Source: Rhodothermales bacterium
Lineage (GTDB): Bacteria > Bacteroidota > Rhodothermia > Rhodothermales > DATKEJ01
Length of the DNA stretch: 64,000 nt
NCBI GenBank assembly: GCA_965222505.1
Contig: OZ244956.1
Location: 788,581-852,580 of the forward strand
Direction: 5' to 3'
Part shown: piece by piece, positions 13,342 through 48,440 of the stretch
Numbering within the stretch: the stretch's first letter is position 1
Layout of the letters: every line of letters begins with the position of its first letter
Notes under the pieces: model-generated
Databases searched by the model: none
Told to the model about the DNA's origin: nothing
What the model saw: the letters and a program-made list of their open reading frames with translations, nothing else
Program-made: the position numbers and the translations under genes

Positions 13342-16056
13342 ATGCATGCACCCAAATGGTCACGCATCGAAGCAATACTAGACCATGCCCTCACCTTGTC
13401 TGGCCCCAAAAGAACAGCGTACATCGACAAAGCCTGTGCACACGATCCAACACTCAAGGATGAAGTTTACCGTCTGCTGGAAGATATGGCTAAAGCAGAG
13501 GCAAGTTCTTTCCTCAAGCAACCAGCCGGTTATGAACTTCAGAATTTAGCACGTCAGGCTTTCGCTTCGGACGCAGACGAATGGATCGGACAAACCCTGG
13601 GGGGATATCGGGTGCTAGAACATATTGGAAGCGGGGGTATGGGATCCGTTTACCTTGCCAAACGAGTCGATGAATCATTTCATCAGCAAGTAGCCATCAA
13701 ACTCATAAAACGGGGCATGAATACCGATAGAGTGATCCGGCGCTTTGTCCGTGAGCGACAAATCCTTGCCCAGCTACGTCATCCCCATATTGCACGCCTG
13801 ATTGATGGCGGCGTAACCGAAGATGGCCTCCCCTATTTTGTGATGGACCATATCGAAGGGCTACCCCTCATATCCTATTGTGATACATATACTTTGACAG
13901 TTGGTGAGCGCATTGATTTGTTTCAGCAAATTTGCGAGGCTGTACGATATGCCCATCAAAATCTGATCGTACACCGTGACCTAAAACCTAGCAATATCCT
14001 CGTTACACCAGCCGGACAAGTCAAGTTATTGGACTTCGGTATTGCCAAAATGCTGGACTATGGTCAACCCGATCAAACCCGTACGGACACTCAAATCCTC
14101 ACCCCTGCCTATGCAGCCCCTGAGCAAATTAAGCGTGAACCGATTACCACAGCTACCGATGTATATGCTTTAGGTATTTTGCTCTATGAGTTGCTCACCG
14201 GCCATCGACCATACCGAGTCGCAAACAAAACGTATGAAGACTTGATCCATGCCATTTGCAATACCATACCGATACGACCCAGTATGGCGATATCACAAGT
14301 ATCGGAGAATAAAGACGGTAGTCGCATATCCCCTGATTCACTTAGTGCAAAACGTCGAACGACTCCGGCGCAACTCAAACGCCGGCTACGCGGAGACCTC
14401 GATACCATCACTCTAATGGCGCTTCGCAAGGAACCCTCTCGTCGGTATCCTTCAGCAGACGCAATGTTGGTCGATCTCAATTCACATGTGGCAGGAATGC
14501 CGATTACAGCCCAAAAAGACACTTTTGGATATCGAGCCGGTAAATTCGTCCGAAGGCACAAGTGGGGCGTCACTGTGACCCTTGTTGGTGTGCTTGCGGG
14601 GTTGGGATTTACATGGCAGTTGGTTCAGGAGCGTAACCGCGCCGAAACCAAGGCCGCTGAAGCGGAGGCCGTATCCAACTACCTCGTATCGCTTTTTGCA
14701 GCACCCGATCCCTTTTCCTATCGAAGTGGCGATTATGAGGATGTAGATGCCGACACCCTCCGCGTTGCTGATTTCCTGAGACTGAGCGCCAAGCGCGTGG
14801 AGTTAGACTTGAATGACCAGCCTGCCGTCAAAGCATTACTGTTAAGCACGATGGGCACGGCTTTTCAAAACTTATCCGATCTGGAGACGGCTGAGCACTT
14901 AATCTCTACCAGCATTGGATTACGCAGTGAGCTGGGCAAAACAGAACAGGAGAACGTGGTAAAATCATTAGCAACCCTCGCAGATATTAATCTTGATCAA
15001 GGGCAATATCAGACAGCTGATTCTTTGTATAAACACGCATTAGAACTTAGCCAAACACTAGATGACACTCCCAATGTACAAACAGCAGTAATTTACAATG
15101 GAATGGGGATCGTCGAACTCAGGAAGGGCAATTATGTAGAGACAGAGGCTTTGTTCAGAGAAGCACTCTCCATTAGACTTGAGCGCCTTCCCCCTGAACA
15201 CAATGACATCTTTCAATCATACAATAACCTAGGGGCTGTGCAAATGAGACAGGGGAAATATGACGAAGCTGAGCAAAATTATAACCGTTGTCTTGAATTC
15301 GATAAGGTACACCTGGGCTTAGATCACCCTGGTACAGCCATTACCCTTGGAAATTTAGCAACGGTTGCATACCAAAAAGGCGATTATGATAAATCTGAAC
15401 GCCTGAACCGTGAAGCATTAGCCATTCGGCGGCAACGACTGGCTCCAGAAAATTCATACATCTCCCAGAACCTTAACAATCTAGCGACAACTTTAAGGGC
15501 AAAAGGCAATTATGACGAAGCGCTAGCCCTTTTTAAGGAAGCCCGCAGCCTTTTCCATTTGATCCAAGGCAGTGAGAGTTCTGGTGTAGCGATCTCTCTG
15601 CTGAATATTGGCACCACCTTAGGTTTACAGGACAAGAATGAAGAAGCCCTGGAGATGCTCTATGACGCACTGGAAATGTGGAAGCGTCTGTTCGGCCCAG
15701 CGCATCCTCGAATTGCGCAAACGATGATGCAAATTGGCATTGTCCTCATGGAAGAAGGCCAACTAGATGAGGCTGAGGCCTTTCACCGGCAAGCACTCGC
15801 AATGAGACAAGAACTCATTGGTACCGATCATCCAGACATTGCCGCTTCAAAAAGCAATTTAGGTGTTGTACTTACGGCCCAAGGTGCACTTGAAGAAGCT
15901 GAACCATACCATTTGCAAGCGGTTGACCTAGCTATAAAATCACTCGGTCAAACCCACCCCTACACCCAGACATACGTACGTAACACTGTTGCCCTCTATG
16001 AGACTTGGAACCGGCCGGAACAGGCCGCAACCTATCGAGAACGGCTGACGGAGTAG
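13342..16056 (+). CDS. Ser/Thr protein kinase with a C-terminal TPR-repeat domain
   Basis: 904 aa; GxGxxG ...LEHIGSGGMGSVYLA..., VAIK, HRDLKPSNILV, DFGIAK, APE motifs; one TM segment; multiple TPR repeats (...YNNLGAVQMRQGKYDEAE...). Confidence 0.9.
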   Translation: MHAPKWSRIEAILDHALTLSGPKRTAYIDKACAHDPTLKDEVYRLLEDMAKAEASSFLKQPAGYELQNLARQAFASDADEWIGQTLGGYRVLEHIGSGGMGSVYLAKRVDESFHQQVAIKLIKRGMNTDRVIRRFVRERQILAQLRHPHIARLIDGGVTEDGLPYFVMDHIEGLPLISYCDTYTLTVGERIDLFQQICEAVRYAHQNLIVHRDLKPSNILVTPAGQVKLLDFGIAKMLDYGQPDQTRTDTQILTPAYAAPEQIKREPITTATDVYALGILLYELLTGHRPYRVANKTYEDLIHAICNTIPIRPSMAISQVSENKDGSRISPDSLSAKRRTTPAQLKRRLRGDLDTITLMALRKEPSRRYPSADAMLVDLNSHVAGMPITAQKDTFGYRAGKFVRRHKWGVTVTLVGVLAGLGFTWQLVQERNRAETKAAEAEAVSNYLVSLFAAPDPFSYRSGDYEDVDADTLRVADFLRLSAKRVELDLNDQPAVKALLLSTMGTAFQNLSDLETAEHLISTSIGLRSELGKTEQENVVKSLATLADINLDQGQYQTADSLYKHALELSQTLDDTPNVQTAVIYNGMGIVELRKGNYVETEALFREALSIRLERLPPEHNDIFQSYNNLGAVQMRQGKYDEAEQNYNRCLEFDKVHLGLDHPGTAITLGNLATVAYQKGDYDKSERLNREALAIRRQRLAPENSYISQNLNNLATTLRAKGNYDEALALFKEARSLFHLIQGSESSGVAISLLNIGTTLGLQDKNEEALEMLYDALEMWKRLFGPAHPRIAQTMMQIGIVLMEEGQLDEAEAFHRQALAMRQELIGTDHPDIAASKSNLGVVLTAQGALEEAEPYHLQAVDLAIKSLGQTHPYTQTYVRNTVALYETWNRPEQAATYRERLTE

Positions 16057-16114
16057 GAGCCTTTTCCCTAATGAGTACGCAGATGCATTACTGGGACAGG
16101 GGGGGTACGATGGG

Positions 16115-16426
16115 CTAGTTGCAGCGCTCCTGTAGGTCCTTGATCCAGGCAAGGGGTAGGCCACCACCGGCCATGCCTCGGATGTATTGGTAGTCGGTAT
16201 CGCTGTTGCGCATGAAGCGCTGTTGGTCCTCACGGATCTCCTTGAACCCTACAGATACCGGTTCGCCCACGCGGCGGGCTTGTTCCCGGATGTAGACGGG
16301 TTCACGTTCAAAGGGCCGAGCCTGCTCCGGTACACAAATCCGATAGGCCATCGTCGCACCCCACACGATCAGAAAGAAAATGATCGGGATAATCACCATC
16401 ACGAAGAGGAGCGCAATCGGATGCAT
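16115..16426 (-). CDS. Small single-TM hypothetical protein at the distal end of the cox operon
   Basis: 103 aa; one hydrophobic helix; overlaps the subunit-IV gene stop by a few nt, consistent with co-transcription. Confidence 0.3.
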   Translation of the reverse strand: MHPIALLFVMVIIPIIFFLIVWGATMAYRICVPEQARPFEREPVYIREQARRVGEPVSVGFKEIREDQQRFMRNSDTDYQYIRGMAGGGLPLAWIKDLQERCN

Positions 16427-16437
16427 GGATATTCAAA

Positions 16438-16911
16438 CTATTGTGTCGGTCCCTTCGGATTGGGGAAGCGGGTAGAATCCGGGGTATTGACCAACGGCTG
16501 TGCCTCGAACTGAGGGCGTACGATTTCATCGCGTTCGCCGAGGACTTGTTCCTCAGCCTCGCGGTCTTTTACGGTAATCGCCTTGTCGGCCTCAAAAAAG
16601 CCGCGGAAATTGGTATCAAGCAGCGTGATACCGATGAAGACCAGCACAAACAGGGACCCCACGACGAACACCATCATGTTTACCCGAGTGTCATACCAGA
16701 GGGCCATAAAAAACATCACCACCAGTGCGGCCTTCGCTACTGCGATGGCCAGAGCCAGCGGCACGTTAAACATGCCGAGGTCTACATATTCGGCGGTCAG
16801 GTACGTCACAATCGTCAGGATGATGAGTGCGGCAAAGACGCCGTAGAGGATTTTCCACGGTGTCTTGTGGTGCCCGTGGTTTTCGTCGTGTGCAGTGTGT
16901 TCGGTTGCCAT
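16438..16911 (-). CDS. Cytochrome c oxidase subunit IV (prokaryotic caa3-type, CtaF/CoxD-like)
   Basis: 157 aa; three TM helices; His-rich N-terminus; positioned after subunit III. Confidence 0.55.
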   Translation of the reverse strand: MATEHTAHDENHGHHKTPWKILYGVFAALIILTIVTYLTAEYVDLGMFNVPLALAIAVAKAALVVMFFMALWYDTRVNMMVFVVGSLFVLVFIGITLLDTNFRGFFEADKAITVKDREAEEQVLGERDEIVRPQFEAQPLVNTPDSTRFPNPKGPTQ

Positions 16912-16958
16912 TCTTATGTGTGTTTAACCCATCTTTTTATGGGATGTACCTTCGGCGA

Positions 16959-17657
16959 TTAAATGAGGTACAACAGGGGAAAGAGGAAAATCCAGATGAT
17001 ATCAACCAGATGCCAGTACAGGCCGGTCAATTCTACCGGGGTGTAGTAGGCGCTGGAAAAGCGCCCTTTGATGGCTTTAACCAGGACCCAGATAAACACG
17101 CCGATGCCAACGAGCACGTGGAACCCGTGGATGCCGGTCATGACGAAGTAGATGCTAAAAAACTGTGGTGCATATGGGATGTTATAGTCGCCGTAGTTAA
17201 CGCCGTGGCTTTCCCCAAACGGTGCAAAACTGGCCCCTGGAAATACCCCATGCGAGAATTTTCCGGAGTATTCCACGTACTTGACGGCCATAAAGCAGAA
17301 GGCAAAAAAGATCGTCAGCAGGATACACACGATCAGGCCACGCTGGTTGTCATCCTGAATAAACCGAATGGCCATGGCCACCGTCAGGGATGAGGCCAGC
17401 AGCACGACGGTGTTCACCCCGCCCCAGAAGGGGTCCAGGAGTTCACTGGCTACGGTAAAGACTTCCGGGTACCACACCCGGTACACCACGTAGGCCACGA
17501 ACATCCCGCTGAAGAGCAGGATCTCCGTGATGAGGAAGAGCCACATGCCCATCTTGGACGCATCGAACTGCTGTTCCGAGGACACAAAGTGGTGATGCAG
17601 GTGGGCAGGATGATCGTGTTCGTGCACGTCCCCTGCATGAGCTACCGTTGTTGACAT
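16959..17657 (-). CDS. coxC: Cytochrome c oxidase subunit III
   Basis: 232 aa; conserved COX3 helices (...FFMAVKYVEY..., ...IYFVMTGIHGFHVLVG..., ...YWHLVDIIWIFLFPLLY). Confidence 0.9.
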   Translation of the reverse strand: MSTTVAHAGDVHEHDHPAHLHHHFVSSEQQFDASKMGMWLFLITEILLFSGMFVAYVVYRVWYPEVFTVASELLDPFWGGVNTVVLLASSLTVAMAIRFIQDDNQRGLIVCILLTIFFAFCFMAVKYVEYSGKFSHGVFPGASFAPFGESHGVNYGDYNIPYAPQFFSIYFVMTGIHGFHVLVGIGVFIWVLVKAIKGRFSSAYYTPVELTGLYWHLVDIIWIFLFPLLYLI

Positions 17658-17679
17658 CTACTTATTTGGGATAGTTAAT

Positions 17680-17775
17680 AAATGAAAACGTAGTTCGTAT
17701 TACGTATTGCGTAAGAGAAATCGCACTCATGTTTGAGGGCACCTTTACGCAATACGCGATACGCATTACAGAAAT
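17680..17775 (-). repeat. Structured intercistronic repeat element, copy A (coxA stop to coxC start)
   Basis: + strand: ...cgtattacgtattgcgtaagagaaatcgcactcatgtttgagggcacctttacgcaatacgcgatacgcattac... Arms cgtattgcgtaag / cttacgcaatacg, plus an extra tandem arm copy next to the upstream stop. Confidence 0.6.
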
Positions 17776-19508
17776 TATGCGTCGGTCTGTTCGGTCGGGG
17801 AGATCACCGGTTCATCGGCCCCACCATCGCCATAGAGTTCATCGACGTACTTGTATTCATACGGCCCACGTGTCACGATGGGCATTTTGGTAAAGTTGTG
17901 CGGATCCGGCGGGGTCGTGGTGGCCATCCATTCCAGCGTGGCCGCGCCCCAGGGGTTGGCTCCGGCCAGGGGTGCCTTCTTGCGCAAGGAGGCCAGGAGT
18001 GTAATCGCGGCGATCAACAGTCCCAGGGTCAGGACCAGGGAGCCGACCGTCGACATCTGGTGAAACTGCTGGAACAGGTCGATCAATTCCTGTTTGATCG
18101 GCTCGCCGGTTGCCATTTGCGAATAGTCGTGGTAACGGCGCGGCATGCCCTGGCTACCCAGGATGAACTGCGGGAAAAAGGTCAGGTTGAACCCGATGAA
18201 CACAAGCCCCGCGCCGATGGATGACCACAGCTGGTTGTACATCTTGCCGAACATCTTGGGCCACCAGTAGTGTACCCCGCCCAGGAAGGCGATCACGTTA
18301 CCGCCCATCATCGTATAGTGGAAGTGGGCCACCACGTAGTAGGTATCGTGCAGGTGGACATCGACGGCCAACACACCCAGCATCACACCGGTTACCCCAC
18401 CGATGGTAAACAGAAACAGGAAGGCCAGCGCATAAAGCATGGGTGTGCGTAACCACACCGAGCCCTTGTACATCGTAGCCACCCAGTTAAAGACCTTGAT
18501 CCCCGAAGGAATCCCGATCAGGTAGGTGATGAGTGAGAAGACAATCGAGGAGACTTCCGACTGGCCAGCCACGAACATGTGATGCCCCCAGACCAGGAAG
18601 CCGAGGAAGGCAATCGCCACCGAGGAAAGCGCGATGGGTTTGTATCCGAAGATGTTCTGGCGGGAGAAAGTGGTGACCAACTCCGAAATAATCCCAAAAG
18701 CCGGCAGAATCATGACGTAGACCGCCGGGTGCGAGTAGAACCAGAAAAAGTGCTGAAACAGCACCGCATCGCCCCCCAGGGCAGGGTCGAAGATACCGAT
18801 GCCCAGATAATGCTCCAGGAACAACAGCACCACCGTAATCCCGAGTACGGGCGTGGCAAGCACCTGAACGATAGCCGTCGAATACAGCCCCCAGATCATC
18901 AACGGGAGCCGGTTCCACGTCATACCCGGTGTACGCATCTTGTGGATGGTCACAATAAAGTTCAGACCCGTCAGGATGGACGAAAAGCCTGCCACAAACA
19001 CCGCCATGGTCATCCACCGGACCGCGTTACTTGCTTGCGAGGAATAGGGTGTATAAAAGGTCCATCCGGTATCCACCTCGCCGGCCAGAATGGCCGAGAC
19101 CGCCAGAATGGCCCCGGTAATGTAGAGGTAGAAGCTCGCCAGGTTCAGCCGGGGAAATGCGACATCCTTGGCCCCGATCATGATGGGCAACACAAAATTG
19201 CCCAGCGAGGCCGGGATCGCAACGAGGATGAAGAGAAAAATCATGATCGCTCCGTGGAGCGTATACACCTGGTTGTACGTATTGCTGTCCAGGAATTGTG
19301 TCCCCGGCGAAAACAACTCCAGCCGGATGATAACAGCCAAAAGCCCTGCAACAAAAAAGAACGTAACCACCGAGAACAAGTACATCAAACCGATGCGTTT
19401 GTGGTCTACGGTGAGCAACCAGGACATGATGCCCTTGGGATGTTTCAAGTAGTTGTGTTCGCCTTCATACCCCTTCGGGACGTTGGCTTGTACTGTGGTT
19501 GCACTCAT
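17775..19508 (-). CDS. coxA: Cytochrome c oxidase subunit I
   Basis: 577 aa; heme-copper oxidase signature (...[17 protein letters not shown]..., ...HHMFVAG...). Confidence 0.95.
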
Positions 19509-19581
19509 AGTCGGTCAGGTGAGGGTTTCTGGGTACCCGGGGGGGTAGCCCTATGCCTTCGAAAATCGCTAAACGCTAATA

Positions 19582-20601
19582 TTATTGAACGGACTTGATG
19601 TATTCAACCAAGGCCTGGACTTCGGTATCATCGAGTGTCATCATCGGCATCACATTCTGGTAGCCGTTGACGATTTTGGCGCCGGGTTCTACGATAGACT
19701 CGCGGAGGTATTCTTCGTCCACCTGCACGCTGGACCCATCGCTGAGTTGTTCCTGCCGCCCAAAAAGGCCCTGGAACGTTGGGCCGACTGTCGCCGAGCC
19801 GTCCAGGCTGTGGCAGGTGACGCATGCTTTCGTGGCGTAGAGGCCTTCGCCATATTCAGCGGTCGGCTCGGCATTCTCGACGGTATTGACCCATTCGGTA
19901 AACACATCTTCGGGAAGCACGTGGAGCCGGGTGGCCATCCGGGAGTGGGCATCCCCACAGTATTCGGTGCAGAACACCTGCACGAAGTCTGCCCCTTCTA
20001 CATCGGCCGTATTGCTGGTCAGTTCATTGGCGATGAACCAGATCGATGTATAGCGGTTGGGAATGACGTCGTGCTTCACCCGGAAATCAGGGATAAAGAA
20101 ACTGTGGAGGACGTCGTCGCTGGTCATGATGAGCTTGACCGGGCGGTCGATGGGCACCAGTAGTTCGTTGGTGACTTTGCCCGAGGGGTACTGAAATTCC
20201 CAGGCCCACTTGCGGCCCTTGACGTAGATTTCATACGCATCCGGCGGGGCCACTGTGACCTTTACAAAGGCACTGAACCCCCATACAAAAACGACCATCA
20301 CCAAAATAGTGGGCAGTACAGCCCAAGCCGTTTCAGTAATCTTGCTCGGATGCACGTCTTCCGCACGTTCATGAGCGTCTTTGCGGATGTACTTCCACAT
20401 CAGGTACAACATCCACGTCACCACACCCACCATGAGCGCAGCACTGGCCCAGTTGACGAAATAAAAGACTTCATCAATCACAGGAGCCAGGTTCGACTTC
20501 TGCGGGGGCATCCAGCCATACACGGCCCAGAGTACCGCCATCCCGACCAGGGAAAGCATTGAGATGATGAGGACCATGACACCGATATTACGATTTTTCA
20601 T
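19582..20601 (-). CDS. coxB: Cytochrome c oxidase subunit II with a fused C-terminal cytochrome c domain (caa3-type)
   Basis: 339 aa; CuA site ...FCTEYCGDAHSRM...; C-terminal CVTCHSLDG heme c motif. Confidence 0.9.
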   Translation of the reverse strand: MKNRNIGVMVLIISMLSLVGMAVLWAVYGWMPPQKSNLAPVIDEVFYFVNWASAALMVGVVTWMLYLMWKYIRKDAHERAEDVHPSKITETAWAVLPTILVMVVFVWGFSAFVKVTVAPPDAYEIYVKGRKWAWEFQYPSGKVTNELLVPIDRPVKLIMTSDDVLHSFFIPDFRVKHDVIPNRYTSIWFIANELTSNTADVEGADFVQVFCTEYCGDAHSRMATRLHVLPEDVFTEWVNTVENAEPTAEYGEGLYATKACVTCHSLDGSATVGPTFQGLFGRQEQLSDGSSVQVDEEYLRESIVEPGAKIVNGYQNVMPMMTLDDTEVQALVEYIKSVQ

Positions 20602-20673
20602 CGTATGCTTTATACGTCTAAGAAGTTAAAAGAGCGGCTGACGGCACAGCACCGGTCAGCCTTACACGTTTCC

Positions 20674-21483
20674 TTAAATACCAGCACGTTGACGTTGCCC
20701 TTCGCGCCGCCAAAACCAAATCAGCAACCCACCAAGCAACACCACCGTCAGCAGACCAGCCAAACGCATCACATTCAGGGCAATCGGCACGTACGAGCCG
20801 GCTTCCGGGTCATACTGAAAACAATATAAAATCAAACGGTCAATGGTAGAACCGATTTGTCCCTGCGAGGCTTCAATCAGCGAATTTCGCACATCGAAGG
20901 GTTCAAACGCGATGCCGTACATATACCGGGTAATCAGGCCCTCTCCGCTTAAAAAGACCAGCACCGCCGGGTGGGCGTACTGTTCGCCTGCTTCATCCCA
21001 AGCGTAGCCAAAACCCACCGCATCAGTAAGGCGACGAATATTGGCCTCATCACCCACGAGGAAGTGCCATCCATCGGCGGCTTCGGGTTTCCCCAGCCGC
21101 TCCACATACCGTGTTTTCTGGGTGGCAGCCTGTTGTGGTGTTTCCTCGTGCGAGAAGCTGACCGTCAAGATATCAAATTTTTCGCCAGGGACCCAATCCA
21201 TTTCTCGCAAAGAGGCTGTTAAGCCGTCCAGCAACAAACTACACAACATCGGGCACTCGTGGTAGGCCAGATTGAGCAACACCGGCCGTTTGCCGCCCAG
21301 GTAGTCTCCGAGGGTAACCGACTTTCCTTCGGCATCGGTGAAGACCAGATCCGTGGGAATCGTTTCGCCCAGGTGCTCTGTGACGTCAGCCTCTTTAAGC
21401 GAAGGCGGCAGCTCGTCCATGGCCTGAGCCCAGGCCCCTGTCGCTACGAACATCAAACAATATGTCAACAGCCACCTTATCAT
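20674..21483 (-). CDS. SCO1/SenC family copper chaperone
   Basis: 269 aa; CxxxC ...HECPMLC... plus conserved His region; location between the ACIII and cox operons. Confidence 0.8.
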   Translation of the reverse strand: MIRWLLTYCLMFVATGAWAQAMDELPPSLKEADVTEHLGETIPTDLVFTDAEGKSVTLGDYLGGKRPVLLNLAYHECPMLCSLLLDGLTASLREMDWVPGEKFDILTVSFSHEETPQQAATQKTRYVERLGKPEAADGWHFLVGDEANIRRLTDAVGFGYAWDEAGEQYAHPAVLVFLSGEGLITRYMYGIAFEPFDVRNSLIEASQGQIGSTIDRLILYCFQYDPEAGSYVPIALNVMRLAGLLTVVLLGGLLIWFWRREGQRQRAGI

Positions 21484-21534
21484 TCTTCAACTATATAACA
21501 GGACTACGCACATGGTCTCGGTCTTGCCCGAGCC

Positions 21535-21882
21535 TTACTCGGTGCCTGCATCCTGAATCACAAGTTCCATAGCCCGTTCAATCGGGATGCGGTAGATGCC
21601 CTGTTCGGCATCGACGACACCGTACTGGGTCAGCAAACGCTGGGCATCGGCATTGGCCTGACGCAGCATGACGGGTTGGGTCATACCGGTCACCTCTTGC
21701 TCCTGTGCATGTTCGGTTACGTTGATCCAGGCGACGACAGCCGTAATGGCAAACACCAAAAAGAGGAAGGTGCCAACAGCTATTTTCATGATGGCATGTG
21801 CAGAGATGCCTTCCGGCTCTACACCGGCGGCAACAATCGCTTCTTCTTCCGGCGTCAGGGGCAATGCGGGATCAGGAATCAT
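21535..21882 (-). CDS. Small single-TM protein at the distal end of the ACIII operon (possible ActG-like accessory subunit); the listed ORF 21535..22062 is N-terminally over-extended
   Basis: The real start is probably MIPDPALPLTPEEE..., followed by the TM helix KIAVGTFLFLVFAITAVVAWI. The first 60 codons of the tool ORF overlap repeat element C. Confidence 0.4.
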   Translation of the reverse strand: MIPDPALPLTPEEEAIVAAGVEPEGISAHAIMKIAVGTFLFLVFAITAVVAWINVTEHAQEQEVTGMTQPVMLRQANADAQRLLTQYGVVDAEQGIYRIPIERAMELVIQDAGTE

Positions 21883-21924
21883 GGATCGTTCAGGTTGTGC
21901 TATACAAAAAATGGGGTGCCATGA

Positions 21925-22042
21925 TGCGTGTTGCGTGAACTCAGGTTGGCATGTTCTGATAGGTGAACAAGCGTCGGTCCCTCCCGTGTATACGGTCGGT
22001 AATGTATGGACCGTATTCACGCAACACGTATCACGCAACACT
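21925..22042 (-). repeat. Structured intercistronic repeat element, copy C (actF stop to small ORF)
   Basis: + strand arms cgtgttgcgtgaa (21927) / ttcacgcaacacg (22016) plus a tandem tatcacgcaacac next to the actF stop. Shares aaaaatggggtgc...gcgtgttgcgtgaact with copy D. Confidence 0.6.
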
Positions 22043-23296
22043 TTAAGCATTTTCAAAGGCAATGGACCGGTTGTAATACCGATCTCCGTAGGCTACCAGA
22101 GCATGGCGATTGAAGCGCCAGACGGCCAGGCCAGCCAACAGAGCGACCAGCCCCAACCACAAGGCAAGATCAATCAGGGCTGGGTGAAATCCGTGGTCAT
22201 GCACCGGCATCGCGATCCAGTACAGATCCACATAATGCGCCAGGAAGAACCACACGGTAAAGAACCACAGCACCGGCTTCATGCGCTTGACAGCCCGGAA
22301 CATCAGCGCAAGGAACGGGAACAGGAAGTGCCCGAAAATGAGGAACGTGGCGAGGGTTTCCCAGCCATTTTCCAGCCGATGACGGAACCACAACGTTTCT
22401 TCAGGCAGGTTGCCATACCAGTAGAGCATGTACTGGCTGAAAGCGATGTACGTCCAGAACACCGTGAAGGCAAACATGTACTTGCCGAGGTCATGGTAAT
22501 GCTCGGGCGTGATCACATGGCTCAGCTTGCCTGCACGCTGGATGAACAGGACGGCCATCGTAATCGCTGCCAACGTCACAAACCATGAGCCCGCAAAGTA
22601 ATACACGCCGAACATCGTCGAGAACCAGTGCGGGTCCAGCGTCATCAGCAGGTCGATACCCACGAAGGCCGTTGTGAGGGCAAACGCCAGTAGGCCCCAG
22701 CCGCTGGTAAAGCGCAACTGCTTGGAGCGGTCCTCGCCCGTCAAATCCTGATGGATTGAGTTGGAAAAAAGTTTATAGGACGAGTAGATCCAGATGGCAA
22801 AGTAAATCACGTACCGGGCGATGAAGAACGGCGTATTCAAATAGCCCTGTTTGCCGGCCAGGATTGGGTCGTAATGTGCACCGCCTACTTCGTAGAGGTC
22901 TTCATGCGTCCAGTGGTAGAGGTCGTGCATCCCGAGCAGGATGGGGATCCCCAACACAAACAGCACCGGAAAGCTCATCATCAGGATTTCGGGAATACGC
23001 CGAACGGTGGCACTCCAGTAGGCCTGTGTGATATGGTGGATCATCACAAAAAACCAGCTTCCCAGCGCAATCGACAGACAGAAGGTGTAGCCGATCAGGT
23101 AGGAGAAGTAGAAGCGGGAGGAAAACAGGTGCCCGTCTTCACCCCCCAGGCCCAGGATAACGCCCAGCACCAGCAGGACTGCACCGACGCCAACGAGCAG
23201 TTGCCACGTGCGGCTTTGCGCACCTAGGCGAAACTCGGGGGGGGCCGCCTCATCCGAGCGGCGTACCGGGTCAAAAAGTCTAAGCAACGGATTCAT
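22043..23296 (-). CDS. actF: Alternative Complex III subunit ActF (NrfD-like membrane subunit)
   Basis: 417 aa polytopic membrane protein, homologous to ActC; position in the cluster. Confidence 0.8.
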   Translation of the reverse strand: MNPLLRLFDPVRRSDEAAPPEFRLGAQSRTWQLLVGVGAVLLVLGVILGLGGEDGHLFSSRFYFSYLIGYTFCLSIALGSWFFVMIHHITQAYWSATVRRIPEILMMSFPVLFVLGIPILLGMHDLYHWTHEDLYEVGGAHYDPILAGKQGYLNTPFFIARYVIYFAIWIYSSYKLFSNSIHQDLTGEDRSKQLRFTSGWGLLAFALTTAFVGIDLLMTLDPHWFSTMFGVYYFAGSWFVTLAAITMAVLFIQRAGKLSHVITPEHYHDLGKYMFAFTVFWTYIAFSQYMLYWYGNLPEETLWFRHRLENGWETLATFLIFGHFLFPFLALMFRAVKRMKPVLWFFTVWFFLAHYVDLYWIAMPVHDHGFHPALIDLALWLGLVALLAGLAVWRFNRHALVAYGDRYYNRSIAFENA

Positions 23297-23328
23297 AGAT
23301 CTCGTCGGTATTCAAATGAGGAAGAAGC

Positions 23329-23991
23329 CTACTGGCCGAGGCCCACGTTGGGGCTTTCGTTCTGAATGTTTTGCATCCGGTCTGCGGGTACATCGCCTGC
23401 ACCGGCATACTGGCTGCGCTGCAAGGCCCGAATGTAGGCCACAATGGCCCAGCGGTCCTCGACGGGAATGTGATACCCGTACGCCGGCATGTTGCGAACG
23501 CCGTTGGAAATCACGTCGAAGAGGTGGCCGTCCTCAACGCCCCGCAGGAAGTCGCTGTGGTACGTCGGCGCCGGTACATAGCCGTAGTTGCCCCGCATAA
23601 TCACGCCCAGGCCGTCGCCGGCTTGCCCGTGGCATGGGGCACAATAGATATTGTAACGTTTCTGACCGCGCTCCATTACAGCACGCGTGAGGGGAACAGG
23701 ATTGGTCTGAACCAGGGAGCCGTCGGCCTCTCGACCGAAATACAGGCGGGTGTCTTCCCGGAGGAAGCCCCGGGCAATCGTTCCCGGTACGGGCTGGCGC
23801 ATGGCCCGGCCGTCCGCGAAGAACGCGTTCGGTTCCTGGGCTTCAAACCGTTCCTGATAGTCCATGTTCAGGTTGGGGTGCACCGGCGGCTTGGAAGACG
23901 TCATGCCCCGGCAACCGGCCATAAACAGCAGCCCGAGGCAGAGGGCCGGGAGGAAGGTGAGGTGTTTCATGGATACCTTTTGGCTTGACAT
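23329..23991 (-). CDS. actE: Alternative Complex III subunit ActE (monoheme cytochrome c lipoprotein)
   Basis: 220 aa; signal/lipobox ...LFMAGC...; single CAPCH heme motif. Confidence 0.8.
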   Translation of the reverse strand: MSSQKVSMKHLTFLPALCLGLLFMAGCRGMTSSKPPVHPNLNMDYQERFEAQEPNAFFADGRAMRQPVPGTIARGFLREDTRLYFGREADGSLVQTNPVPLTRAVMERGQKRYNIYCAPCHGQAGDGLGVIMRGNYGYVPAPTYHSDFLRGVEDGHLFDVISNGVRNMPAYGYHIPVEDRWAIVAYIRALQRSQYAGAGDVPADRMQNIQNESPNVGLGQ

Positions 23992-24003
23992 ACAGGAGTG
24001 GGG

Positions 24004-24597
24004 TTAGGTGGAGGCGTCGGCATCCACCACACCGTGATCCTCAATCACTTCAATGTGGGTCGCGCCCAGTTGCTTGAGCAGATCGCCCGCCTGGGTGATG
24101 TCGAATTGGGGATCTTTGGCCTCAATGTGGAGGAAGAACCCGTCGTCCGTGGCTCGGGCAAAGCGCTCGGAGTAAAACAGGGGATTGTACGGTTTGGGCA
24201 GTCCGTTCAGGGCCAGCATGCCGCCCACAGCGGTCAGGGCCGAAAACAGGATGGTCAGTTCGAACATGATGGGCACGGAAGGCTCCAGTGCAAAAAACGG
24301 CTTGCCGCTGATGTTGAGTGGATAATCCACCCCTCCCATCCAGTACTGCATGTAGAACCCGGTGAAGCAACCCGTAATTGCCCCGATGAAGATGATAAAG
24401 CCGAGCTTGGAATCCCCCAGTCCCATTGCCCGGTCCATGCCGTGGATGGGGAATGGACTGTAGGTATCGAACCGTTTAAAGCCGGCCTCGCGCACCCCGT
24501 GGGCCGCGTGGTAGAGCGCGCCGGGGTTGGCAAATTCGCCGAGGACCCCGTAAGTCGTGCCCGTCTCCGGCTTGGAACCAAACAATGAACTTAGCAT
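24004..24597 (-). CDS. actD: Alternative Complex III subunit ActD
   Basis: 197 aa; DUF3341-like; one TM segment; position between actC and actE. Confidence 0.75.
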   Translation of the reverse strand: MLSSLFGSKPETGTTYGVLGEFANPGALYHAAHGVREAGFKRFDTYSPFPIHGMDRAMGLGDSKLGFIIFIGAITGCFTGFYMQYWMGGVDYPLNISGKPFFALEPSVPIMFELTILFSALTAVGGMLALNGLPKPYNPLFYSERFARATDDGFFLHIEAKDPQFDITQAGDLLKQLGATHIEVIEDHGVVDADAST

Positions 24598-24599
24598 GG

Positions 24600-24714
24600 T
24601 TTAATGTGGGTTATGCAAGTAATAAATCGTATGCTCGTATAGTATTTCGTAGTGCGTAAGGGAAGTTGCCCTGATGTGAGAGGGCACCCTTACGCAATAC
24701 GCATTACGCACTAC
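24600..24714 (-). repeat. Structured intercistronic repeat element, copy B (actC stop to actD start)
   Basis: + strand: ...cgtagtgcgtaagggaagttgccctgatgtgagagggcacccttacgcaatacgcattacgcactacg... Around 80% identical to copy A over the core. Confidence 0.6.
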
Positions 24715-26168
24715 GTTTCTGTTTCTGTTTCCGGTGAAGCCAATTCGGCATCGGCACTGTGGCCGTCTCCGTGCTCGTCATAAAAATGCGGGTTGGCTTC
24801 GGGCATCACACCCTTGACCTCGGCGATGGCAACCATCGGCACAAACCGCAGGAAGAGCAGGAACAGGGTCAAAAACAGGCCGAAACTCCCGACGAGCGTC
24901 AGCACGTCCACAATCGTGGGCGAAAAGTAGTCCCAACTCGACGGCAGGTAATCGCGGTGAAGCGATGTTACCGTAATCACGAACCGTTCGAACCACATCC
25001 CGATGTTGACCAAGATCGAGATCACAAACATAAGCGGGATGTTGCGCCGGAACTTCTTGAACCAGAAAAGCTGCGGGGCAAACACGTTGCAGCTAAACAT
25101 CGTCCAGTAGGCCCAGGCATACGGCCCGGTGGCGCGGTTAATGAAGGCATATTGTTCGTAGGTCACGCCGGAGTACCACGCGATGAAAAATTCCGTGATA
25201 TAGGCAAATCCGACGATTGACCCCGTCAGGAGCATGATGATGTTCATCTTCTCCAAATGGTTCAACGTAATCAGGTCCTCAATTTCGTACACCTTCCGGG
25301 CCGTGATCATAAGCGTTTGCACCATGGCAAACCCGGAGAAGATGGCCCCGGCCACAAAGTAGGGTGGGAAAATCGTCGTGTGCCATCCCGGGACGATAGA
25401 CACGGCAAAGTCGAACGACACGACCGAGTGTACAGAAAGCACCAGCGGTGTAGCCAAACCGGCCAGGATGAGATAGGCACGTTCGTAATGCCGCCAGTGC
25501 CGATTGGCACCCGTCCAGCCCAATGCAAGGGCACCCATCACTTTCTGCCGAATTTTGCCTTTGGCGCGGTCACGCAGCGTGGCCCAGTCCGGGATCAAGC
25601 CAACATACCAGAACAGCACCGATACGGTACCGTAGATCGTGACTGCAAACACATCCCACAACAGCGGACTCTTGAACTGCGGCCACATCAGCATCTGGTT
25701 CGGAATGGGCAGCGTCCAGTAGATCACCCAGATCCGTCCGACGTGAATGGTCGGGAACAAGAGCGCACAAACAACGGCAAAGATCGTCATGGCTTCGGCA
25801 GCCCGGTTAATCCCCGTGCGCCACTTCTGCCGGAACAGAAAGAGCACCGCCGAAATCAGCGTGCCCGCGTGGCCGATCCCGACCCAGAACACGAAGTTGA
25901 CGATGGCCCATCCCCAACCGACCGGGTTGTTCAGGCCCCAAACGCCGGTGCCGTTCCAAAACAACCAGGCGATCATGACAATCAGCGTCAGCAACCCGAC
26001 AACGGCCACCCCAAACAACGGGTACCAGAGCTTCGGCGGTTTCTTCTCAGCGTGTTTCGCCACCAGTTCGGTTACATCGTGGAAGGTATGCCCCCCTTCC
26101 ACCAGGGGTGGATCGGAAGCATGTCCGTCGCCGGAGATGCCGAGGTGTTGATCGTGTGTCGTACTCAT
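24711..26168 (-). CDS. actC: Alternative Complex III subunit ActC (NrfD/PsrC-like quinol-interacting membrane subunit)
   Basis: 485 aa polytopic membrane protein; NrfD-family topology. Confidence 0.85.
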
Positions 26169-26205
26169 TCGAAATTCTGAGTTTACGATTTACGTTGAAA
26201 ACGTA

Positions 26206-29200
26206 TTAAGAGACGTTTTCGAGGCTTGGGTTGGGATTGCGGAGCCGGGCCAGGTACGAGACCCGTGGTTTGACGGACAGTTCTTCGAGCAACTCATAGT
26301 TGCGCTCGTTCTGTTTCATCCGTACCACCTGGCTATTGGCATCGGTAAGGTCACCGAAGGTAATAGACTGCGAGGGGCATGCCTGCTGACATGCCGTCAG
26401 CACTTCGCCCTCGGCAATGCCCCGGCCCTCACGGCGGGCATCCTGGCCGGTCTTGCGAATGCGATGGATACAGAAGGAACACTTCTCCATCACCCCGCGG
26501 AACCGGACCGTCACGTTCGGATTCTGGACCATATGCACGGTGTCCGGCAGCGTCTTGGTCCAGTTGTAGAAATTGAACCGGCGCACTTTGTACGGGCAGT
26601 TGTTGGCGCAGTAGCGCGTCCCGATACACCGGTTGTAGGCCATCACGTTGATGCCGTCCGGGGAGTGCACCGTCGCGGCCACCGGGCAAACCGACTCGCA
26701 CGGGGCATTTTCGCAGTGCATACACATCACCGGCATGGTAACCATACCCGGTACATGCGTATCGTCCCCGGTATAGTACCGGTCCAGGCGAATCCAGCTC
26801 ATGTCCCGGCCCCGGCTGATCTGGTCTTTTCCGACGACCTGTATGTTGTTTTCGCTCTGGCAAGCTGCGACACAGGCATTACAGCCGGTACAGGTATTCA
26901 GATCGATGACCATCCCCCACTGCTGATCGGCGTACCGTGCGTCTGCATATCTTGGGTCTTTGGTCGGATGATCGTCCTCCCAAAGGGCGGGATATTCATC
27001 CCAGGGTTCAAGTTGCTGCCCTTCGCTTTCCAGCCGTTTAATTACATCACCGGCAAAGGTGGGCGTGGCCTTATATTCTTCAAGCGTTGCCATCCGGAAG
27101 ATGGGGCGGCCTTCCATGGAGCCGTGGTCCTGCGTGGTTGCCACCATGTACCCACCACCCGCTCTGCTCACCTGGGCACCGGATACAAAGGATGCCCCAG
27201 CCGAGCGCAGCGGCGCTACATTTTGGCCCACACCGTTTGCCAATGGACCCGCACTGTAGATATCGGCATCGATATCGTAAATCGGCACATCCGGGGGGAC
27301 CCGTGTGCTGTTGATGGCGCGGCCATAGCCGAGGTTCAGCGTCACGACGTCATCGGCATGGCCGGGGGCCACCCAGACGGGCAACTCAACCGACTGTCCG
27401 TTGGCGGAAATGGTAACGGTGTCTACGTAGTGTTTACCTGCATCGATTTCGTAACCGACGCCGAGGGCACTGGCCGTTGCCGGACTCATCATGGCGGCGT
27501 TGTCCCATGTGATCTTCGTCACGGCATCCGGGGTTTCCTGCATCCAGGCATTGTTCGAGAAACGCCCATCGTAGAGTTTGCCATCAGCGCGGAAGGACAA
27601 TTCAATGCCATCGGCTGTGGTGGGCAGGGCAGCCACAGCGGCACCAATCGAAGCGGCGCCGGGGCTGGCGGCTGCAAAGGCCGAATCGGCCAGGAAACCG
27701 TCATGGACCACTTTCCGCCAGGCGGCCTCATAATCGCCCGTCAGGACGCCGCGCCATCCGTTGCGGATAAGTTCAAAGCTGGAATCGGTGCCCCCAGCCA
27801 GGGCATTGACCACATCCAACGCAGAATGGGCATCCGGGTAAAGCGGGGCAACCAAGGGTTGTACCACAGAGCGGGTACCATCAAAGGCACGGCCGTCGCT
27901 CCAGGCTTCCAGATAATGGGCCTGCGGCAGGTGCCAGGCCGAAGCCTGTGCGGTTTCGTCTACCCAGAGGCCCAGGTGAATCGTGTTGGGCACCTGCCCG
28001 AGGGCCTGGGCAAAATTCAATCCGGCCGGCGCGTTATAGACCGGGTTCACGCCGATCATCAACAGGGTATCCACTTGCCCGGCACTCATGGACTGGGCCA
28101 GTGCAGCCAGGGCTTCGTCTTGCGGTTGCCGCTGGGCTTCACCGGTATTCAGCAACTGAACGGTTGTGCCAATGTTGCCAAGGGTCTGGTTGATGGCGGC
28201 ACACAAGGCATGCACAGCCGCAGGCTGGCCCGAACCGGACAACACAATCCCCTGCCCTTGATGGGCTCGCAGGTCATCCGCCAAGGCGGCAATCCAGGGG
28301 TGATCGGCGAAGGCGCTGCCAGCAGAAGCCGCTTCCGAGAGGCCGAGGCGGGCAGCCAGGGCCGCAGCAAATGCACCGATCTGGCTCGGCTTGAGCCGCA
28401 GGCGATGGTCGGCCATGCCGCCCGTGCCACTGAAGGCACTTTCAACCACGTAAAGCCGACTCATGGTGTCGCTGGTGGACATCACGCGGCGGCCATCGGC
28501 GTAGGTGCGAGCGTCGTGGGTATTATTGGGGTTGAGCGGCCCCAGAAAATCGGCATCCAGGCTCAGAATGACCTGGGCCTGATCAAATTGGTGAACGGTG
28601 CGGTAGGGCTGACCAAAGGCCATTTGTGTGCCTAGTGCAGCGTTATCGTCCCCGGTAGCTTCCCAGGTTACCCAGTTCAAATTCGGGTAGCGGGTGGCAA
28701 GCTGGGTGCGGAGTGCAGCCATCGTCGGCGAACTGCTGGCTTCGGCCAAAACGGCCACCTGGCCGCTCGGCTGATGGGTCCGGGCAAAGTCCGTAAAGTC
28801 ATCCCATGAAGCCGCCGTGTTACCGTGCAGTACGCGCTTGGAACGGTCTGGGTCGTACAGGTTCAGGATGGAAGCCTGCTGGAAGATGTTGGATGCGCCC
28901 TGGCTAACGGGGTGTTCGGTATTGCCTTCGACCTTCGTTGGTCGCCCTTCATGGCTTTCGACGAGCATCGGGTGCAGGACCCCGGCCATCGGCATGGCGG
29001 TGGCATAAAACAACGGCAACCCAGGAATCACTTCCTCGGGTTTGCGGCTGTAGGGTAGAATTTGTTCCACCGGACGGCGGCAAGCGGTCAGGCCGGCCAT
29101 CGCCATAGAGGCCCCCATCAGCTTGATAAAATCACGCCGGGAAGATGCCGTAGGGGCTTCAAGGGCATCCGGCGCAAATTCTTGCGCCTGTTGGGCCCGG

Positions 29201-29364
29201 AACGCCGGGGTCTGGTTATAATCCTCAAGGCTTCGCCAGGTCCGGGTGGTTTCGGATGCGCTGGCTTCAGCTTCGGCCGGACTCAGTACAGGAAGGTCGA
29301 GTAACATAGTCGAGGTATGCGTTCGCGGTGAACGTGGCAGGACATTAGTAGTGGCACGCGCCAC
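26206..29364 (-). CDS. actB: Alternative Complex III subunit ActB (fused molybdopterin-oxidoreductase-like domain plus 4Fe-4S ferredoxin domain), Tat-secreted
   Basis: 1052 aa; twin-arginine motif SRRDFIKLMGASMAMAGLTA; C-terminal Cys clusters (CTGCNACVAACQSEN, CMHCENAPCESVCPV, CIGTRYCANNCPY). Confidence 0.9.
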   Translation of the reverse strand: MARATTNVLPRSPRTHTSTMLLDLPVLSPAEAEASASETTRTWRSLEDYNQTPAFRAQQAQEFAPDALEAPTASSRRDFIKLMGASMAMAGLTACRRPVEQILPYSRKPEEVIPGLPLFYATAMPMAGVLHPMLVESHEGRPTKVEGNTEHPVSQGASNIFQQASILNLYDPDRSKRVLHGNTAASWDDFTDFARTHQPSGQVAVLAEASSSPTMAALRTQLATRYPNLNWVTWEATGDDNAALGTQMAFGQPYRTVHQFDQAQVILSLDADFLGPLNPNNTHDARTYADGRRVMSTSDTMSRLYVVESAFSGTGGMADHRLRLKPSQIGAFAAALAARLGLSEAASAGSAFADHPWIAALADDLRAHQGQGIVLSGSGQPAAVHALCAAINQTLGNIGTTVQLLNTGEAQRQPQDEALAALAQSMSAGQVDTLLMIGVNPVYNAPAGLNFAQALGQVPNTIHLGLWVDETAQASAWHLPQAHYLEAWSDGRAFDGTRSVVQPLVAPLYPDAHSALDVVNALAGGTDSSFELIRNGWRGVLTGDYEAAWRKVVHDGFLADSAFAAASPGAASIGAAVAALPTTADGIELSFRADGKLYDGRFSNNAWMQETPDAVTKITWDNAAMMSPATASALGVGYEIDAGKHYVDTVTISANGQSVELPVWVAPGHADDVVTLNLGYGRAINSTRVPPDVPIYDIDADIYSAGPLANGVGQNVAPLRSAGASFVSGAQVSRAGGGYMVATTQDHGSMEGRPIFRMATLEEYKATPTFAGDVIKRLESEGQQLEPWDEYPALWEDDHPTKDPRYADARYADQQWGMVIDLNTCTGCNACVAACQSENNIQVVGKDQISRGRDMSWIRLDRYYTGDDTHVPGMVTMPVMCMHCENAPCESVCPVAATVHSPDGINVMAYNRCIGTRYCANNCPYKVRRFNFYNWTKTLPDTVHMVQNPNVTVRFRGVMEKCSFCIHRIRKTGQDARREGRGIAEGEVLTACQQACPSQSITFGDLTDANSQVVRMKQNERNYELLEELSVKPRVSYLARLRNPNPSLENVS

Positions 29365-29992: not shown

Positions 29993-30572
29993 ACGGCTTT
30001 GGTAAAGGATAAACCTCCGAAGCGGGATCTAGGTGTGGTGCTTCACCCATGGCGAAAATGTAGAATATGGGGCACCTTACGTGCTTTGAATTTAGGTTGA
30101 ATACAAACCTTTCAATATTTACAAAACCGGTTTTTGGGGCCCATTTTTGGGTGATGGTGAAAAACTACGAAATCCATCTTCCAGATGTGCAGAACCTGAC
30201 TTGCGGTTTTGTGAAGGTCTGTTGGCGTTGTAGCGAATTTGCGTCGAAGGACTTGCCAGGAAATACGACCGCCGGGCTTGTTGAAGGTGCGCGTTTTGTT
30301 TAAATTCCTGCAATTACATCAGATGTGACACCCCACTCCCCTGCGATGTCGACAACGTTCCACCCTCCGACATCAGAGTCTTTGGATTCGCATACTAAGC
30401 CTCAGGGCGGCTGGGCGAAAATGCACGCTTTGGGCCGAAACGAGTAGCCAACCCATAGGAAGCGGACCTCATCTAAAACATGCGAACCGGAAGTGAAGGT
30501 GTGTACATCTTTGCATTGGAAGGGCTGGTTCATCTGCAATGTGTGGCCCCTTTATGTGGGTGGATACTCCCG

Positions 30573-30609
30573 AACGCTCGGTCGAATTTGACCGAGCGTT
30601 ATTTTTTTG
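30573..30609 (+). terminator. Intrinsic terminator in the 5' leader about 100 nt upstream of nfeD
   Basis: aacgctcggtc-gaattt-gaccgagcgtt followed by atttttttg (11-bp stem plus T7). Confidence 0.7.
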
Positions 30610-30709
30610 AGACCAGGGGTCTGCAGCATCCCTTGATATTTTCTGCCACTTTCCAAAACTACCGTTCCTATCTTGGCGTATACACCGCTCATACTAAACA
30701 GAAACCGTC

Positions 30710-31327: not shown

Positions 31328-31375
31328 TAGACCCCTGATTCGTTATCCTTGTATTGAAAAATTGAGGCTACCCCT

Positions 31376-32626: not shown

Positions 32627-32667
32627 GAAAACCGGGATAGACGACTGTCGTCAAAGACCTTCGGGCA

Positions 32668-33137: not shown

Positions 33138-33321
33138 TAAATGGGGGTTGCTTCGAACCCTTTGTTCAGCTCAAGCGATAAGCCTATCTCTCACGGTTAA
33201 CCAAAACGTATTCCGTAATTCGAAACGAGCGTAGCGACTAACGAAGTAATTGCGTAAGGATGTTGTACGCAATACTTTCCTGGCGCTACACGTGAGGTCT
33301 CACACAACTTGAGTTACATGT

Positions 33322-48235: not shown

Positions 48236-48289
48236 GTTGTATTTGGTGTTTGTTGGTGTGATGATTAAAAATGGGGTGCTGGTATTTAT

Positions 48290-48440
48290 GCAGAGCGTAT
48301 TGCGTGAACTTAGTCCATTATGTTTTACCAAAACAAGTCCCTTTCTGCATTTCCCGAGTATTCGGCTACTGTATCCCGGGCCGAAATTACGCAATACGTT
48401 TCCCGCACAAAAGGGGTCTGACACACACTTGAGTTATTAT
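48290..48440 (-). repeat. Structured intergenic repeat element, copy D (pssA stop to purS start)
   Basis: + strand arms gcgtattgcgtgaact (48295) / aattacgcaatacg (48386). 5' flank aaaaatggggtgc shared with copy C; 3' flank ggtctgacacacacttgagtta shared with the ppk-downstream site near 33280-33300. Confidence 0.55.

Follow-up and report, generated by a model that had tools for sequence, protein, structure and literature searches.

The 64,000-nt stretch of a Rhodothermales genome analysed here (hereafter the window; GenBank assembly GCA_965222505.1, contig OZ244956.1, positions 788,581 to 852,580) carries, on its minus strand, an alternative complex III (ACIII)-caa3 operon, whose three longest intergenic gaps each contain an inverted repeat. 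We regard these repeats (elements A, B and C) as probable miniature copies, devoid of an open reading frame (ORF), of a dispersed, selfish, palindromic element of the intervening sequence (IVS) type, the full form of which carries a gene of the PF05635 family. The copies in the ACIII-caa3 operon were inserted in a lineage-specific manner, at junctions where the genes of relatives are tightly spaced, and sequence comparison suggests that they arose as deletion derivatives of PF05635 cassettes.

Element A lies within the coxA/coxC gap (17658-17774; 117 nt), element B within the actC/actD gap (24598-24710; 113 nt) and element C within the gap between actF and a small ORF (21883-22042; 160 nt). 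The last gap had been given as 118 nt in a preliminary description of this DNA, but it measures 160 nt because the small ORF begins at ATG 21882, a start that matches a called gene in the near-identical strain L001 (83% amino acid sequence identity). The same description placed the elements in the only long gaps of the operon and called all other junctions tight or overlapping. The three longest gaps are indeed the occupied ones; the remaining junctions are tight only in a rough sense, since they measure 12-73 nt or overlap (72 nt for SCO/coxB and 73 nt for coxB/coxA).

A 7-nt unit, repeated in tandem, makes up both arms of the elements; it reads GTAnTGC in the 5' arm and GCAnTAC in the 3' arm. 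The left arm can be written as (GTAnTGC)n closing in ...GCGTAA and the right arm as TTACGC...(GCAnTAC)n, and we refer to the heptamer arms of the family as TTACGCAATACG-type. This arrangement replaces the anatomy proposed earlier, a tandem pair of 13-nt motifs followed by a single reverse-complement arm. Element A (17680..17779; arms 17690-17714 and 17745-17769, presumably transcribed on the minus strand) has 25-nt arms, 84% complementary, on either side of a 30-nt spacer that includes GAGGGCACC; its predicted fold reaches -33.6 kcal/mol (z = -4.95 relative to shuffled sequences). Element B (24627..24724; arms 24642-24659 and 24690-24715) likewise has a 30-nt spacer and a fold z-score of -4.67, and the TAG stop codon of actC (24711-24713) falls within its outermost GTAG unit. 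Elements A and B share 82% identity across 73 nt, close to the 80% first reported. Element C (21910..22049; arms 21925-21939 and 22016-22041) is built of the variant units GTGTTGC and GCAACAC, with a spacer of 76 nt between the arms (78 nt between the 12-mer cores 21927-21938 and 22017-22028) and a fold z-score of -4.16. The stems of B and C comprise 12-18 bp. All three elements show some traits of miniature inverted-repeat transposable elements (MITEs), namely terminal inverted repeats, small size and the lack of coding capacity.

The number of such arms in the window is well above chance expectation. The arm 12-mer, with up to two mismatches, occurs 17 times (3.1 expected), and convergent arm pairs are found at five loci (0.003 expected), all of them in gaps between co-directional genes. 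A covariance model (R1) was built from 36 family members, including A and B as training sequences, but not C. It scores A at E = 1e-13 (3e-12 on the other strand), B at 1e-10 and C at 1e-3, with nearly equal scores on the two strands. The three elements are thus real, related inverted repeats, as had been proposed, with convergent arms and folds (z between -4.2 and -5.0) that chance does not readily produce.

Comparison with related operons shows that these repeats are not conserved at the orthologous junctions. The actC/actD junction of the closest distinct relative (L144; ActD 86% identical) is 12 nt long and lacks the element; in a second relative with a 4.5-Mb sequence (L148), every operon junction is 2-25 nt or overlapping; and in a third (L146) the gaps are longer and contain no heptamers. 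Across 85 ACIII loci (710 kb searched), R1 matches occur in only six, at junctions other than those of the window. Members were located at actA/actB in L083 (unit GTCCGTR, the units bearing GTAG or GTGG), at actD/actE in L088 and L098, and between coxC and the next gene in L079 (unit ACGTRAA). In L001, a metagenome contig, the orthologue of element B (fold -41.4 kcal/mol, z = -7.4) is a heptamer shorter in one arm and a heptamer longer in the other, and the junction corresponding to that of element C holds a different, shorter member. Since relatives lack the elements, other lineages use other junctions and even L001 differs, we interpret them as lineage-specific insertions with fast turnover; the drift of unit number between close strains is read as slippage. 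Identity between the window and L001 amounts to 97.4% over actC to actF and to only 86.6-89.5% downstream of the junction between actF and the small ORF, and the junction with element C cannot be aligned (21883-22042 in the window, 2760-2846 in L001). This junction looks like a recombination or replacement boundary between the two sequences.

The stems do not show the compensatory covariation that had been suggested as a check. In the 36-sequence alignment, 79.7% of the cells are paired, compared with 80.9% when the letters of the 3' side are shuffled, and the covariation score (0.064 vs. 0.076 in shuffles) was equalled or exceeded in 456 of 500 shuffles. The variable fourth position of the unit differs independently between the arms, and outer arms pair with their own partner no better than with arms swapped in from other elements. 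What is conserved is the sequence of the unit and its inverted arrangement. Sub-families with other units (C, L079 and L083) carry one variant on both arms, which fits the copying of entire palindromic elements. No target-site duplication is visible at sharply bounded copies such as those in L019 and L024, and most other ends are blurred by decay of the arms; the sole empty-site comparison (L144) cannot be aligned across the junction. A GGCACCC duplication in L001 was considered as a target-site duplication and set aside, being a single case that the spacer motif of an A/B-type element accounts for more readily. A sigma-54 promoter reading of GGCACC-N-TTACGC was also rejected, the spacing being one base short of the consensus.

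The family extends far beyond the Rhodothermales. An exact-pattern scan (GTATTGCGTAA-N25-55-TTACGCAMTAC) of 596 Gb of sequence, one genome per GTDB species, returned 57 loci, of which about 4 would be expected by chance if equal base frequencies are assumed; the scan covered gaps of 25-55 nt, shorter than the spacers of members such as C and F (element F, elsewhere in the window, is described below). Over half of the loci belong to Chloroflexota and most of the others to Rhodothermales/Salinibacteraceae, with further hosts among Calditrichaceae, Planctomycetota, Omnitrophota, Zixibacteria and Saprospiraceae, as well as one cultured Hymenobacter; two loci are contigs of a single metagenome-assembled genome (MAG) labelled Deltaproteobacteria. 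The flanks of these loci carry on as heptamers (TACGCAW), with TACGCAA the commonest, followed by TACGCAT and TACGCAC. The 7-nt unit is unchanged in hosts of 37-73% GC, and the GC content of the matches themselves is approximately 0.4-0.5. In 368 kb around the seed matches, about 16 additional copies were detected at E<0.01, i.e., approximately one per 23 kb, a density similar to that in the window. On crude gene calling, 30 of 36 classifiable elements lie in co-directional gaps, four in convergent and two in divergent ones. Copies often begin 0-10 nt after a stop codon and finish 2-35 nt before the next start. Their neighbours are unrelated housekeeping genes (hisD, trxB, rpsS, atp genes and ABC transporters); copies lie, for example, on both sides of hisD and around rpsS, and an Omnitrophota atp operon holds five or six of them. 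In a Rhodothermales chromosome (L027, 5820-5870), the right arm and part of the spacer (ccagtccagcatccttacgcactac) are tandemly duplicated.

Several searches were negative. Viral contigs, screened with a looser pattern, gave five matches, none with heptamer flanks, which we take as chance occurrences and hence as a negative control. BLAST of the consensus element against plasmids gave no match, a result to which the low-complexity filter may contribute, and all-vs-all ORF clustering of the 57 loci yielded only generic families and no common neighbour gene or transposase. A Caldithrix palindrome (AACCGTT..AACGGTT) proved to be a different motif.

The link with PF05635 comes from longer elements with the same ends in other phyla, in which the arms enclose a gene for a protein of approximately 119 amino acids and the whole is inserted sense-wise between the genes of transcribed operons. 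L009 has one such case, in which a gap of its Omnitrophota atp operon contains a 119-amino-acid ORF of the PF05635/TIGR02436 family between heptamer arrays. This family is annotated as "23S rRNA intervening sequence protein", a four-helix bundle related to the Avd protein of diversity-generating retroelements and to PDB 2GSC. The genomic contexts of six homologues of the L009 ORF were retrieved, and cassettes of this type were found at atpG/atpD (L149-L152), at groEL/dnaJ in two Phycisphaerae MAGs (L153-L156 and L158), between a pabB-like gene and an aminotransferase gene (L157), at mcp/cheA (L159) and at atpE/atpF (L161). Every PF05635 ORF is co-directional with its host operon. A GCGTnnT-type array follows the stop codon of the host gene in all cassettes and an AnnACGC-type array follows directly after the stop codon of the ORF in most, the left and right arrays matching each other in L153, L158, L157 and L149. 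The layout in L158 is TAA-ACGTCGTCGTGCGTATTGCGTGATGCGTATTGCGTAG...ATG (ORF) TAA-cctgTTACGCAATACGCGATACGCGAGACGCAATAC...ATG (dnaJ). The right arm in L158, located 5 nt past the PF05635 stop codon, opens with a 20-mer that element A carries without any difference (TTACGCAATACGCGATACGC; 17745-17764). L009 also contains an ORF-less copy, whose 33-nt right arm is the same as that of the cassette, and the spacer of this ORF-less copy (GAAAAAAA/TTTTAA) looks like the cassette leader joined to the last codons of the gene by an internal deletion.

Some further observations concern these cassettes. Altogether, PF05635 genes were seen at three junctions of F-type ATP synthase operons (atpE/atpF, atpH/atpA and atpG/atpD), always in the sense orientation, on Omnitrophota-like contigs (L149-L152, L161-L164 and L009). 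Directly upstream of the PF05635 start in L009 (2440-2485) there is a second tandem heptamer, (AGCTnTC)x4 or, read another way, GTCAGYT, which is reminiscent of the GACAGAT repeats preceding S23p of Coxiella and, loosely, of the reverse complement of TAACTGA repeats. A more distant homologue on a Planctomycetales contig (L056) is flanked by inverted GGTCACC and GGTGACC arrays. The region 2100-3230 of that contig also contains a duplicated segment of approximately 180 nt, a TACGCAA-type element nested inside the GGTCACC arrays and a candidate tRNA gene recognised by eye.

Some points weigh against this view of the window copies. First, the window contains no PF05635 gene or remnant (tblastn, best E 0.38), so the link to the cassettes rests on arm identity with elements of other phyla. 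Second, apart from L056, which has another unit, the PF05635 proteins sampled belong to a single subfamily and share at least 67% identity with that of L009. Third, the spacers of A and B (GGGTGCCC...) have no similarity to cassette sequences. Fourth, neither a target-site duplication nor a mobilising enzyme was identified, PF05635 not being a known transposase.

The structure of the arms suggests how such copies could persist in operons. Whatever the frame in which an arm is entered, it presents a stop codon, and a copy can therefore abut, or even supply, the stop codon of the upstream gene. An AU-rich leader of 30-45 nt remains between the copy and the next start codon, so that the operon can tolerate the insertion. 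Once transcribed, a copy would fold into a stem of 12-25 bp. By analogy with the stems of IVSs, Correia/nemis repeats and repetitive extragenic palindromic (REP) sequences, this stem could be a substrate of RNase III and/or a barrier to 3' exonucleases. The polycistronic mRNA might then be cleaved or differentially stabilised at actC/actD, actF/small ORF and coxA/coxC. Any such effect on the mRNA would be a by-product and not a function dedicated to this operon.

The preliminary description had allowed, as a fallback, that the repeats might be a mobile REP-like family. Much of this stands, for the elements are dispersed, intergenic, palindromic and multi-copy, with lineage-specific positions; the closest relatives that we found, however, are PF05635 cassettes of the IVS type and not classical REPs. 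In a stricter form of the idea, they would be REPs, or pairs of REPs forming a hairpin (REPINs), mobilised or maintained by a REP-associated tyrosine transposase (RAYT; TnpA_REP, HUH-Y1) that recognises a GT[AG]G foot, like the "double-foot" REPs of subclass 2.4. We consider this unlikely. Outer units do often read GTAG...CTAC (B, L009, L025 and L044), the units of L083 bear GTAG or GTGG, and double-foot REPs (5' GT[AG]G, 3' C[TC]AC) have been reported with RAYTs of subclass 2.4 from Bacteroidetes, Cyanobacteria and a scatter of other phyla (PMC6006769); the intergenic, multi-copy distribution and the absence of visible target duplications also agree with it. Element B bears the GTAG foot on its outer unit, element A bears it on one arm, and it recurs in many members of the family; arms without it start with GTAA, GTAT or GTGT. 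On the other hand, a scan of 1.18 Mb of loci revealed no HUH...Y motif in any ORF, and the gene located between the arms, where one is present, is PF05635 and not a RAYT gene. The arms are not individually palindromic, and the stems, with approximately 43% GC and made of 7-nt units, go against the rules established for REPs (PMC6006769). Moreover, REPs are species-specific, whereas here one unit spans several phyla and hosts of 37-73% GC, and the motif is missing from the REP tables of the same study.

Another explanation, to which we give little credence, is that the arms are arrays of protein-binding sites, one 7-nt unit per site, with a role for the host at the level of DNA or RNA (nucleoid organisation or translation control), the hairpin being incidental. 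The heptads bound by omega proteins of the ribbon-helix-helix type, or a ring-shaped protein such as a PF05635 pentamer, would be precedents. This would account for the conservation of unit sequence rather than pairing, for the independence of the variable positions between the arms, for the constancy of the unit in hosts of such different GC content and for its varying number, and protein binding has been proposed for the phyla-spanning intergenic TAACTGA heptamer repeats (MacGregor 2015; PMC4679880). However, the matched arms in sub-families with different units (C, L079, L083 and L056) are better explained by the copying of entire palindromic elements, and presence or absence between close relatives speaks against an essential role in the host.

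The preliminary description itself favoured a cis-regulatory RNA dedicated to the ACIII-caa3 operon, acting as a processing or stabilisation hairpin, an internal attenuator or the binding site of a regulator. This now appears very improbable, although exactly the three longest junctions are filled, the folds are stable, and members recur in the ACIII/caa3 operons of L079, L083, L088 and L098. The recurrences occupy six different junctions in all, none of them orthologous, and the corresponding junctions of the closest relatives are tight and lack the element. The stems do not covary, and the family is also present in his, atp, S10, groEL-dnaJ and che operons of many phyla, beside unrelated genes. 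Two copies in the window lie outside the operon, and, with the exception of actF/small ORF, the occupied junctions ignore module boundaries. Least credible of all is the reading of the elements as intrinsic (Rho-independent) terminators or attenuators that tune read-through: element A is followed by CGUUUUCAUUUAUU in the mRNA sense and T-runs adjoin the arms in some family members, but TTTT occurs in only 21 of 100 flanks (T fraction 0.31 vs. a whole-locus background of 0.22, uncorrected for AT-rich intergenic DNA), the stems are AT-rich with large loops instead of the GC-rich stem, short loop and consistent U-tract of a terminator, the elements are located inside the essential operons S10, atp and his, and A, B and C were not called by a terminator scan, which is weak evidence because that scan permits only loops of 3-8 nt.

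The window contains further members and fragments of the family. Element E (33191..33285, minus strand), in the gap between ppk and the gene of a LysM protein, contains a long decayed heptamer array and is a weak or decayed member (R1 E 0.34). Element F (48275..48414, minus strand; arms 48296-48307 and 48387-48398), between a pgsA-like CDP-alcohol phosphatidyltransferase gene and purS, has a 79-nt spacer and is a borderline member (R1 E 0.06). A possible degenerate mini-member in the actB/actC gap (26169..26205; TTTACGATTTACGTTgaaAACGTA) does not reach significance (R1 E 2.2). The fragment reported earlier in the operon leader is present 78-91 nt upstream of actA (30070..30083; GGGGCACCTTACG) but does not fold better than shuffled sequence (z = -0.13). 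An isolated remnant of an A/B-type spacer/arm junction is one possible identity, but the fragment is indistinguishable from a chance match.

Several repeats accompany these copies. A 13-mer, AAAAATGGGGTGC, occurs exactly at 21907-21919 and 48267-48279, just beyond an arm of both C and F; in the mRNA sense it reads GCACCCCAUUUUU and lies approximately 28-35 nt upstream of the next start codon. L001 retains GGCACCCCAT at its C junction. The 13-mer may belong to a longer element of the C/F type, or it may be a shared leader motif. The interior of element E (33223-33262) recurs with 85% identity at 37132-37171, in another co-directional gap, and the flanks of E and F are alike (33300-33316 and 48430-48446; GGTCT.ACACA.CTTGAGTTA), near the upstream stop codons, which suggests larger composite repeats. 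A solo arm-like stretch, TCACACAACGTGTATCACGCATCAC (63032-63056), between the ORFs at 61690-62967 and 63046-63840, is 84% identical to the right arm of C and received no R1 call. Upstream of the operon leader there is a strong terminator-like hairpin on the plus strand (30573-30600; AACGCTCGGTCGAATTTGACCGAGCGTT followed by ATTTTTTT), which presumably ends a plus-strand transcript.

According to ORF and Pfam calls, the ACIII-caa3 operon comprises actA-F, the small ORF, an SCO-like gene, coxB, coxA, coxC and coxD, all on the minus strand. Within this operon lie actC (24711-26168), actD (24004-24597), actE (23329-23991), actF (22043-23296), the SCO-like gene (20674-21483), coxB (19582-20601), coxA (17775-19508), coxC (16959-17657) and coxD (16438-16911). 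The long junctions of this operon are colonised spacers and not part of an ancestral regulatory design, and ACIII-specific riboregulation should not be annotated from them.

The occurrence of the same arms from Rhodothermales to Chloroflexota and Planctomycetota, in essential operons and flanking PF05635 genes, suggests that IVS-type elements are no curiosity of rRNA; they have the appearance of a widespread family able to invade any spacer that is transcribed. They offer a handle on the function of TIGR02436/PF05635 proteins and might explain how operon mRNAs come to be processed in little-studied phyla. More tentatively, and with the balance of probability somewhat against it, the heptamer-armed hairpins and the PF05635 cassettes could form one undescribed selfish class that targets transcribed non-coding spacers in general, be they junctions of atp, groEL-dnaJ, S10, his and ACIII-caa3 operons or helices of rRNA. 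If so, this class would span at least six phyla and keep an AT-rich 7-nt unit in hosts of 37-73% GC, and the classical IVS of rRNA would be merely one insertion niche. Through RNase III, copies lacking an ORF would break up operon mRNAs, as IVSs do with 23S rRNA, or stabilise them differentially. That copies with an ORF are strictly sense-oriented would then point to reliance on host transcription, or to RNA-mediated spread with an Avd-like protein.

We found no known family that describes these elements. At the gathering threshold, Rfam 15 has no match, and hence no rRNA match, in the window, and none in 20 other element-bearing loci; even at E values up to 5, nothing overlaps the elements in the region 16000-34000. 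Literature searches by literal sequence and by keyword found no description of the motif. Several known systems are nevertheless similar in part. The Correia/nemis elements of Neisseria are MITEs that form hairpins cleaved by RNase III in mRNA. They share with the copies described here non-autonomy, terminal inverted repeats, a size of 70-160 nt and, presumably, co-transcription with neighbouring genes and an origin as deletion derivatives of a longer element with the same ends. They differ in having a DDE transposase partner and target-site duplications, neither of which was seen here, and the ends of our elements are heptamer arrays. Likewise, where the parent of a MITE would carry a transposase, the longer elements with the same ends encode PF05635.

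REPs, REPINs and bacterial interspersed mosaic elements, with their RAYTs, are also short, intergenic, multi-copy palindromes, mostly downstream of genes and within operons, whose positions vary between lineages; GTAG...CTAC feet on many copies and the lack of target duplication are further common traits. The known effects of REPs on mRNA stability (PMC3733652, PMC6006769) are a plausible consequence of palindromes such as ours. In REPs, however, each repeat is a GC-rich hairpin and sequences are species-specific, whereas the arms described here are tandem 7-nt units without self-complementarity, conserved across phyla and associated with PF05635, no RAYT motif having been found in the 1.18 Mb of loci scanned. 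A resemblance of another kind is to the TAACTGA heptamer repeats of Beggiatoaceae, Cyanobacteria and Bacteroidetes and to the cyanobacterial short tandemly repeated repetitive (STRR) sequences, which have a 7-nt unit in variable copy number, are intergenic, often directly before start codons (ribosomal protein operons included), and are patchily distributed across phyla with no known mechanism of transfer (PMC4679880). These are direct repeats in one orientation and of another unit, whereas our elements have two inverted arrays, one on each side of a spacer, and are connected with a PF05635 cassette.

The ORF-bearing IVSs of 23S rRNA (Coxiella and Leptospira; S23p = PF05635) come closest. In the Coxiella IVS, a stem of terminal inverted repeats is cut by RNase III, an S23p ORF is present, and tandem heptamers vary in number between strains (PMC4990558). 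As in our elements, the terminal inverted repeats pair into a long stem, and the loop that it closes holds a four-helix-bundle ORF of PF05635 or, in other species, none (PMC4990558), the ORF-bearing relatives here being L009 and L149-L161. Insertion in the sense orientation into a transcribed non-coding position, strain-variable tandem heptamers and the status of a selfish element (PMC4990558) are also common to both. The differences lie in location and architecture: all copies studied here are situated in spacers between protein-coding genes and not in helix 9, 25 or 45 of 23S rRNA, those of the window are ORF-less, and the arms themselves are arrays of CGTR-core heptamers, whereas the heptamers of Coxiella (GACAGAT) are internal and located upstream of the ORF.

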